A stretch of 64,000 bases of DNA from Candidatus Sumerlaeota bacterium (GTDB lineage: Bacteria > Sumerlaeota > Sumerlaeia > UBA8349): assembly GCA_016931035.1 (NCBI GenBank), contig JAFGFN010000181.1, forward strand, positions 3,664-67,663, given 5' to 3'. The translations under genes and the position numbers were made by a program. This document shows positions 5,056-7,845 of the stretch, piece after piece (position 1 is the first letter of the stretch; every line of letters starts with the position of its first letter). The notes under the pieces are model-generated. The model was given only the letters and a program-made list of their open reading frames with translations, had not been told where the DNA came from and made no database searches.

Positions 5056-6061
5056 TTCCACTTTCCGGGACGGCGATCCGCGCGCGTTCGAGCGCGCTTC
5101 GGATGACATTGTCGATCAGCCGGTCGTATCGCATTCCCTCCTGCGCGGCGATCATCGGCAGATCGGAGTGCGAAGGGTGCAAACCCGCAAGCGGATTGAT
5201 CTCGATGAACGCCGGACGGCCCTCGGCGTCGAGACGGATATCGACCCGTCCCGCGTCGCGACACTCGAGCGTGCGATAGCAGGCCAGCGCCAAGGCCTCG
5301 ACCTCGCGGCGCAGGTCTATCTCGCGCAGGGGCGAGTAGCGAACTTGAGTCTCGCATCGCTCCTTCGTTTCGTACGAATAGATAGCGTTGGCGTCTCGAG
5401 GGAGAATCTCGATCTCCATCGTTCCCAGGACTCGGGCCTTGCCGTCGGCGCCGAGAACGGCCGTCGTGAACTCGCGTCCGGGGAGATACTTCTCGACGAG
5501 GACCGGCTGACTGGATCGAGCGAGAAGCGCCGTACAGACCCGCTCGAGCTGCTCGCGCGATTCGATTCGGCTGTCGTTGTCGATTCCCTTGCCCGTCCCC
5601 TCGGCGATCGGCTTGACGAAAAGCGGGAACGCCAGATCGACCCGGGCGAGATCGCCCGCCGAACGCACGACGCGGAAATCGGGCGTGTTCAGGCCGGCCT
5701 CGCGCACCAGGCGCTTCGCCACGGCTTTGTCGAGCGTGGCGGCGCACGTGAGGGGGTCGGAGAAGGTGTAGGGGACCCCGTAGAGTTCGAGAATGGCCGG
5801 TACTTGCGACTCGCGCGACCGGCCGCGCATCCCCTCCGCGACGGTGAAGACCAGATCCCAACGTTCGCCCGCGACAAGCCACGCGCAGAGCTTCCGCGCG
5901 TTGCCGATCCGGACCACGCGATACCCGAGGGCGCGGATCGTGTTCTCGATCGCGTCGATCGTTTCGTCGGAGTCGAACTCGGCCACCTGTTCTTCGGTGT
6001 AACCTTCGGCCAGGTACTCGCTTCGCAGATCGTAGACGAGTCCGATGCTCAAGTCGTTCAT
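5009..6061 (-). CDS. D-alanine--D-alanine ligase family ATP-grasp enzyme (paralog 1)
   Basis: MNDLSIGLVYDLR...FVKPIAEGTGKGI...VEKYLPGREFTTAVLG...EINPLAGLHP is a typical Ddl-like ATP-grasp sequence. Its ATG overlaps the stop of the upstream gene in an ATGA arrangement at 6058-6061. Confidence 0.8.
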   Translation of the reverse strand: MNDLSIGLVYDLRSEYLAEGYTEEQVAEFDSDETIDAIENTIRALGYRVVRIGNARKLCAWLVAGERWDLVFTVAEGMRGRSRESQVPAILELYGVPYTFSDPLTCAATLDKAVAKRLVREAGLNTPDFRVVRSAGDLARVDLAFPLFVKPIAEGTGKGIDNDSRIESREQLERVCTALLARSSQPVLVEKYLPGREFTTAVLGADGKARVLGTMEIEILPRDANAIYSYETKERCETQVRYSPLREIDLRREVEALALACYRTLECRDAGRVDIRLDAEGRPAFIEINPLAGLHPSHSDLPMIAAQEGMRYDRLIDNVIRSALERARIAVPESGNETQSSPSTDTLQLA

Positions 6062-7845
6062 GGACTTTCCTTCCTGTGTCCGGCATTTCGATTTGGCGGG
6101 AAATCTTGTTTCCCCGAGAGTCCCTGCGCAACGCCGAGGAAGAAGGCCGGGGCGCCGCGTCGAAGATTGCGCAGGCTGTATCCCCCCTCCTGCACGACCA
6201 GCAAGGGGAGATTCAAGGCGCCCAGGCGCCGTCCGACCTGGCGGATGGTCGCAGGCGTGAGAACGAACGACCCGGTCGGGTCGCCCTTGATCGTATCGAG
6301 CCCGAGCGACGCGACCAGAAACGCGGGTCTGAACCGCTCGATCAGAGCCGCGGCCTTCTCGACCGCCTCCAGGTAGGCTTTCTCGTCCGCCAGTTCCGGG
6401 AGCGGCAAGTTGCGGTTGAAGCCCTTACCCGGTCCTTCGCCGACCTCGTCGGCGAAACCGCTGAAATAGGGATAGGCGATGTTGGGATGGCCGTGAATCG
6501 AGATCGTCAGCACGTCGTCGCGCGCGAAGAAAATATCCTGGGTCCCGTTGCCGTGGTGATAATCGATGTCGAGAACGGCCACGCGCCCTTCGCGACTCAA
6601 TCGATTCGCGACGATGGCGGCGTTGTTGAAGTAGCAGAAGCCCCCGAACGAGCGTTTGCCCGCGTGATGACCGGGAGGACGACACAGCGCGTAGGCCACG
6701 CGGCGTCCGCCGAGGATCTCGTCGCCCGCCGTCATCGCGACGTCGACGGCGGCGCGCGCGGCCTCGTAGGCGTTGCGATCCAGCGGCGTGAACGTGTCGA
6801 TACAGAAGTAACCCGCCCGAACCGCCTTTTCGCGCGGCGGGCGATTGGCGCGCCGAATCGGGAAGACGTACGGATAAACCGGCTGTTTGGTGTCGAGACC
6901 TTCGCACACCGCTTTGAGGTAGTTCACGAAATCGCCGTCGTGCACCGCGCGGATCGCCCCCTCGCCGAACCGGCGAGCGGGAACGAAGGCGAACAGATTC
7001 GTGCGCGAGATGGCGTCCTGGATCGCGGTCACGCGCGCCGGACGCTCGACGTAGCCGCGGTCGCGTACATGATGCATCTGGTGACGCTCGCCCACGATGG
7101 CGGCGAACGATTTCATCAGATGGAAAGCGGCCGTTTCTTTCGCCCCGTTCTTCTCATCCCCGTAGCGCGGCTCGCGGAAACGAACGGGATCGTCGGCGAA
7201 GGATTCGACGACGCGCCGGACATATTCGGCATCGACTAGGTGGCCGTACTTGCGCTCGAGAATCAGGCGCACGGCCGTGCGGGCTTCGGCCCGCCGCAGC
7301 GGTTTGCCTCGCCCGAGGTCGTCGAACAGCAAGCAGGGCGCCGCGACGGACGAGTCCCCGATCGGGGTCTCGTACGAGGTGCCCACGATGGGCCGAACGC
7401 CGTAGCGCTCGTAGAACTGGAGACGCCGTCGATTCTGTTCGAGAATCTTCGGGTCCTTCACGAGCGCCGGATCGTCGGGCAGGACTTCCATGTACATGCC
7501 GCGCGAACCTTGATCCACCAGATACTCGCGCGTCGCTTCGTACAGAGCGCTGCCCAATCCGCCTCCGCGCGTCTGCGGGGCGGTCGCCATGAAATCGAGG
7601 AGCGCGCTCTGGATCTCGGGGAACTCGAGAAGAAGGGAGAATCCCGTGACGCGCCGCGACGAGGTCTCGGATACCAGCAGGGCGGCGCGGTAGCCGTACT
7701 TGAACGGATGTTCGAGCATATCGGGGATTTTCGCCGCATAGTCGGCGACGGCGCCGAAGTTGGCGCGGAAAATCCCCTGGACTTGCTCCACGCGATCGCG
7801 ATCGACCGGCAGCGCTGGGCTGTGGACACGCCGGATCCGAAACAT
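6058..7845 (-). CDS. fusion protein: N-terminal GNAT acetyltransferase (AblB-like) + C-terminal histone-deacetylase/acetylpolyamine-amidohydrolase-like domain
   Basis: 595 aa from MFRIRRVHSPALPV. N-domain RGGGLGSALYEATREYL is a GNAT motif A. C-domain ALCRPPGHHA...VLDIDYHHGNGTQ...GGY is HDAC/AcuC/AphA-like. ATG 7845-7843 overlaps the TGA of the KamA gene. The ORF-track entry 6058..9177 is an over-extension into another gene's frame. Confidence 0.8.
   Translation of the reverse strand: MFRIRRVHSPALPVDRDRVEQVQGIFRANFGAVADYAAKIPDMLEHPFKYGYRAALLVSETSSRRVTGFSLLLEFPEIQSALLDFMATAPQTRGGGLGSALYEATREYLVDQGSRGMYMEVLPDDPALVKDPKILEQNRRRLQFYERYGVRPIVGTSYETPIGDSSVAAPCLLFDDLGRGKPLRRAEARTAVRLILERKYGHLVDAEYVRRVVESFADDPVRFREPRYGDEKNGAKETAAFHLMKSFAAIVGERHQMHHVRDRGYVERPARVTAIQDAISRTNLFAFVPARRFGEGAIRAVHDGDFVNYLKAVCEGLDTKQPVYPYVFPIRRANRPPREKAVRAGYFCIDTFTPLDRNAYEAARAAVDVAMTAGDEILGGRRVAYALCRPPGHHAGKRSFGGFCYFNNAAIVANRLSREGRVAVLDIDYHHGNGTQDIFFARDDVLTISIHGHPNIAYPYFSGFADEVGEGPGKGFNRNLPLPELADEKAYLEAVEKAAALIERFRPAFLVASLGLDTIKGDPTGSFVLTPATIRQVGRRLGALNLPLLVVQEGGYSLRNLRRGAPAFFLGVAQGLSGKQDFPPNRNAGHRKESP

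Follow-up and report, generated by a model that had tools for sequence, protein, structure and literature searches.

A GNAT-acetylpolyamine amidohydrolase fusion protein as an optional accessory of a predicted beta-lysine gene cluster in Candidatus Sumerlaeota and other bacteria

The 64,000-nucleotide stretch of Candidatus Sumerlaeota DNA analysed here (assembly GCA_016931035.1, contig JAFGFN010000181.1, positions 3,664 to 67,663; "the window", to whose positions all coordinates refer unless another locus is named) encodes a single polypeptide in which an N-terminal acetyltransferase of the GNAT fold is joined to a C-terminal zinc deacetylase of the acetylpolyamine amidohydrolase (APAH) clade. 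The gene of this GNAT-APAH fusion protein (FUS) follows that of KamA, read as a lysine 2,3-aminomutase, and precedes the genes of two ATP-grasp ligases (AG1 and AG2) and of a second, small GNAT (g). An earlier sequence-only reading had proposed the cycling of an acetyl group on a beta-lysine or polyamine-like intermediate, and this idea is kept as the leading hypothesis: FUS would serve to mask the putrescine-like terminal amine of beta-lysine, or that of its amide, and to unmask it again, a reading that is plausible, if short of probable, and in which we infer substrate, amine, direction and purpose alike. Contrary to the framing of the sequence-only reading, FUS is an optional accessory of the pathway and not its centre. 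The gene and its two halves are located as follows:

6058..7845, reverse strand: FUS, GNAT-APAH fusion; uninterrupted open reading frame (ORF) of 595 amino acids.
7156..7845, reverse strand: FUS residues 1-230, GNAT domain; GNAT fold with a two-helix C-terminal extension that ends in a conserved DDPVRFREPRY tail.
6109..7116, reverse strand: FUS residues 244-579, zinc deacetylase domain of the APAH clade, assigned from PF00850 and the nearest solved relatives.

The presence of acetyltransferase and deacetylase domains in one polypeptide, as recognised in the sequence-only reading, is borne out by the PF00850 and GNAT matches within this single ORF, and the motifs quoted there, RGGGLGSALYEA, PPGHHA and DIDYHHGNGTQ, are all present. 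All 24 aligned homologues share an MxRIRR start and are collinear with FUS through to the C-terminal end; this collinearity and the G+C content by codon position fit a single ORF, so that a frameshift or two separate genes can be rejected. The list of ORFs contained a longer frame of 1039 amino acids (6058-9177, reverse strand), which is rejected on account of the homologue starts, a Shine-Dalgarno GGAG (7855-7852) 6 nt 5' of the ATG at 7845 and a drop in third-position G+C (GC3). GC3 amounts to 0.79 within the FUS ORF and to only 0.49 in the in-frame open stretch upstream (7846-9177), which is therefore read as non-coding; judged from the sequence, the 1039-amino-acid ORF is an artefact of G+C-rich DNA. 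As is usual for DNA with 63% G+C, many long spurious ORFs lie in alternative frames or antisense, e.g. 7899-9257 and 4835-6376 on the forward strand. Across the KamA gene no stop codon interrupts the FUS frame for 1.3 kb, and gene callers might be misled into the 1039-amino-acid product.

At its 5' end the FUS start codon (ATG, 7845-7843) shares one base with the KamA stop codon (TGA, 7847-7845) in the form TGATG, and at its 3' end the FUS stop and the AG1 start overlap by four bases in an ATGA (6061-6058). The stop/start overlap with KamA claimed in the sequence-only reading thus exists, but it comprises one base only, and the ATGA assigned to it belongs to the FUS/AG1 junction. This translational coupling from KamA through FUS to AG1 points to an action of FUS near the formation of beta-lysine. 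NCBIfam holds no model for FUS, and the database entry identical to the window protein (from a Candidatus Sumerlaeota metagenome-assembled genome) is named "histone deacetylase family protein". An AlphaFold2 model of the full-length protein reaches a mean confidence (pLDDT) of 81.7 and a predicted template-modelling (TM) score of 0.83.

The C-terminal half matches Pfam Hist_deacetyl (PF00850) at residues 266-569 with an E-value of 5.7e-72 (243 bits, cut-off 27.9), and the match extends over profile positions 2-295 of 298. Its closest relatives in the Protein Data Bank (PDB) are the APAHs 6phr (9e-70), 9gkz (2e-68), 3q9b (7e-62) and also 3men, and HDAC6 and other histone deacetylases (HDACs) rank below them. 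The C-terminal ~335 residues of FUS align over their entire length with bacterial APAHs of the cluster of classical deacylases (cluster 4; 6PHR, 9GKZ, 3Q9B; E-values of 1e-70 to 1e-62) and possess the same His-His dyad, Asp-His-Asp zinc site, Asn relay and Tyr. Graf et al. (PMC11532494) place the bacterial polyamine deacetylases in ApaH cluster 4. The catalytic set of FUS is complete, with the dyad H393/H394, the zinc ligands D428, H430 and D517, the catalytic Y556 and the charge-relay residues D426 and N433; D426 and D428 are the potassium/zinc aspartates. Each of these eight residues aligns with its APAH counterpart and is conserved in all of the 78 full-length FUS orthologues that were extracted from genome loci (44-62% identity, >12 phyla; all conservation counts below refer to this set), so that the alignment called for in the sequence-only reading finds dyad, zinc ligands and catalytic Tyr intact. 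By every family criterion that a sequence allows, the C-terminal half is an APAH/HDAC-type domain; its hydrolase activity is predicted, and it would deacetylate a primary amine. APAHs consist of ~340 amino acids and stand alone, whereas the FUS domain is fused behind a GNAT of 230 residues. In the APAH-type dimer, the "polyamine specificity" loops L1 and L2 shape the tunnel. The alignments begin at APAH residues 28-37 and leave the L1 region unmatched: APAHs possess an L1 segment before their ExPxR motif, FUS apparently a shorter linker instead. Unlike in APAHs, the L2 loop of FUS carries a family-specific invariant motif, YPYVFPxR...AGYxCxDTFTPL. In the AlphaFold2 model pLDDT falls below 50 at residues 256-267 and 326-351, the latter corresponding to the APAH L2 region.

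The N-terminal half is recognised by Pfam Acetyltransf_1 at residues 65-149 marginally above the cut-off of 20.7 (20.8 bits in the full-length protein, 22.7 bits in the isolated domain), and Acetyltransf_7 scores 23-24.7 bits, under its cut-off of 27. An AlphaFold2 model of residues 1-262 (pLDDT 87) displays a GNAT fold with two extra helices, and Foldseek aligns it at a probability of 1.0 and a target-normalised TM score of 0.75-0.80 with GCN5, PCAF, 2R7H and many bacterial GNATs. Identity in these matches is just 10-19% (10-14% to GCN5), and no close solved relative of this half was found by sequence search. The acetyl-CoA loop R93-G-G-G96-L-G98 fits the pattern Q/R-x-x-G-x-G/A; G96 and G98 are invariant (78/78), position 93 is variable. 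Y145 (78/78), E120 (77/78) and an Asp or Glu at position 84 (77/78) occupy positions typical of GNAT catalytic residues, and by analogy such roles may be assigned to them. Fold model and cofactor loop thus identify the N-terminal half as a GNAT, which would acetylate a primary amine with acetyl-CoA. Because the deacetylase residues and these GNAT positions are conserved in 77-78 of 78 orthologues, both halves of FUS appear to be under selection to stay active.

The N-terminal domain belongs to a small family. A search without word index among 1.84 billion proteins yields 590 representative clusters, mostly FUS or FUS fragments, with few stand-alone proteins of ~230 amino acids. The latter were considered as a split version of the system and rejected, as the two examined (P0228 and P0213) lie in unrelated contexts without a deacetylase. 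Divergent solo FUS-type GNATs of ~240-255 amino acids (27-29% identity; positions 1761-2528 of locus L091 and 7001-7720 of locus L092) occur in unrelated contexts with no deacetylase nearby; in one case the neighbour is a PF26745 "SPM" protein, in the other the neighbours are a MacB-type ABC exporter and a glycosyltransferase. The sequence-only reading had called the acetyltransferase AblB-like, and this label is not upheld: the AblB model TIGR03827 does not match the whole of FUS at E <= 0.01, and neither the isolated N-terminal domain nor the small GNAT of the operon at E <= 1. AblB membership is rejected for both GNATs, and by its sequence the FUS N-terminal domain is a separate small GNAT family.

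The fusion is not the unusual architecture that it had been taken for. When one genome of each GTDB species is scanned with a pattern, the same architecture appears in at least 593 confirmed FUS relatives from >12 phyla, and the best 120 database matches of the window protein are all full-length relatives with 60-68% identity. The species scan recovers FUS in Planctomycetota, Spirochaetota, Nitrospirales, many Desulfobacterota, Myxococcota, Alpha- and Gammaproteobacteria, Dehalococcoidia, Bacteroidales, Gemmatimonadota, Synergistaceae, Lentisphaeria and Chitinispirillaceae; FUS is also present in Thermoanaerobaculia, Calditrichaceae and KSB1. Source records comprise freshwater, soil, sludge and saline sites. 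The GNAT-APAH architecture is widespread and merely unnamed; full-text literature searches found no paper on the fusion, the gene cluster or the cluster product, and the uncharacterised structure 2R7H is the sole experimental object linked to the cluster.

The remaining genes of the operon, of which the sequence-only reading had overlooked most (the two ATP-grasp ligases, the second GNAT and the upstream TetR gene), are arranged as follows:

9254..9949, reverse strand: TetR-family regulator (Pfam TetR_N, E-value 1.7e-18), immediately upstream of the operon.
7845..9209, reverse strand: KamA, radical S-adenosylmethionine/pyridoxal 5'-phosphate (PLP) lysine 2,3-aminomutase (PDB 2A5H, E-value 6.6e-138 over 394 residues); first gene of the pathway.
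5009..6061, reverse strand: AG1, Ddl-like ATP-grasp amide ligase (Pfam Dala_Dala_lig_C positions 1-203 of 204, E-value 1e-31).
3973..5055, reverse strand: AG2, second and more divergent Ddl-like ATP-grasp amide ligase (Pfam Dala_Dala_lig_C, E-value 3e-22).
3453..3941, reverse strand: small GNAT g of 162 amino acids, last gene of the operon (PDB 2R7H, E-value 1.2e-34; Pfam Acetyltransf_1, E-value 2e-13).

KamA retains, relative to the Clostridium lysine 2,3-aminomutase 2A5H, the CxxxCxxC motif (CAMYCRHC), Asp293 (QCDL) and both Asp330 and the PLP lysine Lys337 (FVVDSPHGGGK). We take Asp293 and Asp330 of 2A5H to hold the epsilon-ammonium group of lysine and Lys337 to bind PLP. With all of these residues and the iron-sulfur motif retained, the protein is read from its sequence as a lysine-specific enzyme that converts L-lysine into beta-lysine, in agreement with the earlier identification of a beta-lysine-forming neighbour. 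It scores 318 bits with TIGR00238 (cut-off 199), and its best NCBIfam model is that of AblA (TIGR03820, 495.3 bits, just under the cut-off of 525.4). In AG1 the Mg/ATP motifs (R-x-D...E-x-N) are in place together with the FVKP lysine, and AG2 likewise retains the Mg/ATP motifs. With the best Ddl model of NCBIfam (NF002378, cut-off 243) they reach 167 and 113 bits, respectively; as they score far below every Ddl cut-off, they are rejected as true D-Ala-D-Ala ligases and share only the Ddl-like ATP-grasp fold. The AG2 ATG at 5055 implies an overlap of 47 nt with the 3' end of AG1, compared to 1-4 nt at the other junctions, and translation of AG2 may in fact begin at a later codon. A Shine-Dalgarno GGAGGG is found 5' of the ATG of the small GNAT at 3941. 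The TetR gene is probably the local regulator of the operon in this lineage. A TetR gene with 50% identity occupies the same position in a Phycisphaerae locus (L006), and other lineages possess a sigma-54 activator there. Simple promoter and terminator scans of the operon returned nothing over background, and membership in a defence system is rejected, as none of the five operon proteins matches a PADLOC model.

The surroundings of the operon contain further genes. Directly downstream (2448-3413, reverse strand) lies a gene for 321 amino acids with an N-terminal SEFIR/TIR domain (Pfam SEFIR, E-value 4.6e-11; PADLOC bSEFIR, E-value 7.6e-41), overlapped and followed by an ORF of 160 amino acids (2267-2749). 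Farther on, an asparagine-synthase family gene on the forward strand (115-1482; Asn_synthase, E-value 6e-85) adjoins a HisF-like gene on the reverse strand (1494-2270; His_biosynth, E-value 4e-70); paired in this way, the two would fit a glycan or amidotransferase function better than the synthesis of histidine, and no link between it and the operon was seen. Upstream of the TetR gene (10061-12124, reverse strand), a trypsin-like serine protease of 687 amino acids with a weak PDZ match is not conserved beside the cluster elsewhere.

The relation of FUS to the other pathway genes was followed from both sides. Thirty-six FUS loci had flanks of 6 kb or more on either side: 19 of these possess all of KamA, both ligases and g, 6 possess some and 11 none of them. 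The commonest order is KamA-AG1-AG2-FUS-g, followed by KamA-AG1-AG2-g-FUS, and the order KamA-FUS-AG1-AG2-g of the window is rarer; as gene order varies between phyla, the linkage is regarded as functional and not accidental. Fusions occur as well: a triple fusion GNAT-APAH-small GNAT of ~740-760 amino acids (P0130 and P0160), an ATP-grasp domain joined to a FUS-type GNAT in one protein (P0148) and an AG2-small GNAT fusion in Thermoanaerobaculia (L002). All-against-all clustering of ORFs from at least 80 loci finds no further gene family (exporter, transporter, regulator or decarboxylase) that recurs near the cluster or near FUS genes standing alone. Lone and clustered FUS genes as separate subfamilies are rejected, since no position discriminates between them and their mean identity to the window protein is equal.

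Seen from AG1, 15 of 21 metagenome loci with long flanks contain KamA-AG1-AG2-g without FUS, and 6 contain it with FUS. Seen from the small GNAT, in contigs resembling Desulfovibrio alaskensis G20 (L084, positions 5465-9531, and L085), KamA-AG1-AG2-g follows a sigma-54 activator and the cluster holds no FUS; an O. alaskensis FUS is also absent among the best 120 relatives of the Desulfovibrio mangrovi protein. Judged from local flanks and this list of 120 matches, by which absence from genomes was assessed, D. alaskensis G20 appears to have the core without the fusion. The full set is carried by the cultured species D. mangrovi (CP104208.1, about positions 3,558,300-3,564,150) and D. psychrotolerans, Geoalkalibacter halelectricus has FUS and g only, and D. 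ferrophilus has FUS alone. Because the core often lacks FUS and FUS occurs apart from the core, the stable core is KamA, two ligases and the small GNAT, with FUS as an optional module that is often paired or fused with g. In D. psychrotolerans an ArsP_1-type permease and a DUF1980 protein (L087, 4901-6944) lie in or beside the cluster, and in L090 a DMT_6 and an MFS transporter (4848-5204 and 7582-9114). These membrane proteins hint that the product may be exported in those organisms; the window has no such gene.

In the pathway favoured here, KamA would turn lysine into beta-lysine, the two Ddl-like ligases would form two amide bonds, the small GNAT would cap an amine, and FUS would set the acetylation state, and so the charge, of the terminal (epsilon) amine on beta-lysine or on the beta-lysine amide made by the ligases. 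The GNAT half would mask this amine and the APAH half unmask it, as a reversible switch or a recycling step comparable to the acetylation/deacetylation cycle of polyamines, which would alter the charge, activity or fate of the beta-lysyl compound. The operon holds three domains that handle acetyl groups, two predicted writers and one predicted eraser. In beta-lysine (3,6-diaminohexanoate) four carbons separate the two nitrogens, as in the N-C4-N skeleton of putrescine, to which a carboxymethyl branch is added. N-epsilon-acetyl-beta-lysine accordingly resembles N-acetylputrescine, a substrate of the APAH clade, and an APAH-clade domain would therefore be a natural choice for deacetylating the epsilon-amine. 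An accessory role of FUS is favoured because the core cluster does without it in many genomes.

Several observations speak against this reading. If both halves worked on the same amine of the same molecule, they would form a futile cycle that burns acetyl-CoA, and no regulatory domain is visible in FUS. The GNAT scores in Pfam are marginal, and substrate recognition may differ from that of APAHs, given the low-confidence L2 region (326-351) and the apparently shortened L1 segment. Moreover, about one FUS gene in three has no beta-lysine gene in the 8 kb around it, which makes a general polyamine substrate possible.

Three known systems resemble parts of this arrangement. In the polyamine cycle (SpeG/SSAT or PaiA with APAH/HDAC10), a GNAT writer and an HDAC-fold eraser likewise act on the primary amines of di- and polyamines and control their charge and fate; there they are separate proteins under separate control, whereas FUS is one polypeptide genetically tied to beta-lysine synthesis. 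In methanogens, an AblA-type lysine 2,3-aminomutase is likewise followed directly by a GNAT gene (AblB), with beta-lysine as the likely acceptor. The likeness is confined to this first step, and the pathway of the window adds two ATP-grasp ligases, a second GNAT and a deacetylase domain. The Ngg pathway to N-acetylglutaminylglutamine amide (NAGGN) and the synthesis of N-acetylaspartate (NAA) and N-acetylaspartylglutamate (NAAG) employ a GNAT with ATP-grasp ligases to make N-acetylated small peptides. The combination of GNAT and ATP-grasp, fused as AG2-g in Thermoanaerobaculia, is like these in logic only and suggests an N-acetylated oligo-amide as product; in contrast to them, the ligases here are of the Ddl-like subfamily, the building block is beta-lysine and a deacetylase is added. 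The structure 2R7H (Dde_3044 of D. alaskensis G20, "putative D-alanine N-acetyltransferase"), a product of structural genomics, comes from the same orthologue family as the small GNAT g and is encoded in the same KamA-ligase-ligase-GNAT cluster; the name under which it was deposited was probably guessed from the Ddl-like genes next to it. To the GNAT of FUS itself it is related by fold only, and the G20-like cluster lacks FUS.

The main rival of reversible masking is an obligatory protecting group, following the logic of ArgA with ArgE or ArgJ: the GNAT would acetylate the epsilon-amine of new beta-lysine before ligation and the APAH deprotect the finished amide, which would block lactam cyclisation or wrong-amine reaction of the acyl-phosphate. 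N-acetyl protection followed by deacetylation is established in arginine biosynthesis. The two halves would here use different molecules, without a futile cycle, and the tight coupling from KamA through FUS to AG1 and AG2 in the window, the constant retention of both halves together and intact, and the ATP-grasp/FUS-type GNAT fusion of P0148 all fit. The core nonetheless occurs without FUS in 15 of the 21 independent loci and in the G20-like contigs, with no O. alaskensis FUS among the best 120 relatives of the D. mangrovi protein; FUS also occurs without ligases, and its commonest place is after the ligases and not after KamA. On this balance a protecting group is unlikely. A general polyamine homeostat (for putrescine, cadaverine or spermidine), often deposited beside the beta-lysine cluster without a specific tie to it, would account for the position of the C-terminal half within the polyamine-deacetylase clade, for the 11 of 36 long-flank FUS loci without nearby beta-lysine genes, for the lone FUS of D. 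ferrophilus and for the indistinguishable sequences of lone and clustered FUS. Full linkage in 19 of 36 loci, in many phyla and in varying order, is far beyond chance, gene fusions exist with both g and ATP-grasp, and genes for polyamine biosynthesis or transport do not recur beside lone FUS genes, which renders such a homeostat quite unlikely.

A specific elaboration of the sequence-only reading, towards an osmolyte of the AblB type, has the GNAT make N-epsilon-acetyl-beta-lysine and the APAH degrade it after osmotic down-shift. N-epsilon-acetyl-beta-lysine is a known osmolyte of methanogens, made by AblA and AblB; FUS adjoins an AblA-like lysine 2,3-aminomutase, and the APAH clade suits an acetyl-putrescine-like substrate. 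This version is improbable, as neither GNAT matches TIGR03827, no role would fall to the pair of ATP-grasp ligases, which is universally linked, or to the second GNAT, and the sources include freshwater, soil and sludge besides saline sites. A writer/eraser of protein-lysine acetylation, regulating pathway enzymes or other proteins, could be read from the GCN5/PCAF histone acetyltransferase domains as best structural matches of the GNAT half and from some peptide-lysine deacetylase activity shown by one cluster-4 ApaH (PMC11532494). The likeness to GCN5 is confined to the fold (10-14% identity), the deacetylase half shows 45-50% similarity to APAHs acting on small molecules, FUS shares a conserved operon with small-molecule enzymes and is physically fused to such enzymes, and no candidate target protein is linked to it; a role on proteins is highly improbable.

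Reversible masking of a beta-lysyl amine by FUS remains the preferred explanation. Both enzyme kinds are known, and what is new is their fusion within a widespread, uncharacterised pathway. More doubtful than masking as such is the further proposition that FUS represents the first bifunctional small-molecule N-acetyltransferase/N-deacetylase, a "paradoxical" two-headed enzyme like SpoT or PFK-2/FBPase-2, which would set the charge of undescribed beta-lysine-derived amides (a polyamine surrogate or compatible solute) produced by the KamA/two ATP-grasp/GNAT cassette. The question is directly testable, as cultured carriers exist and one component (2R7H) already has a crystal structure. N-acetyl writers and erasers acting on amines are normally separate and separately regulated, and a single-chain writer-eraser, if true, would be a new design for the control of amine charge. 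The cassette occurs in anaerobic and sediment-dwelling bacteria from >12 phyla. Species-level genomes that hold this self-contained, predicted beta-lysine pathway number in the hundreds and range from Planctomycetota and Spirochaetota to Desulfovibrionaceae, Dehalococcoidia and Bacteroidales.

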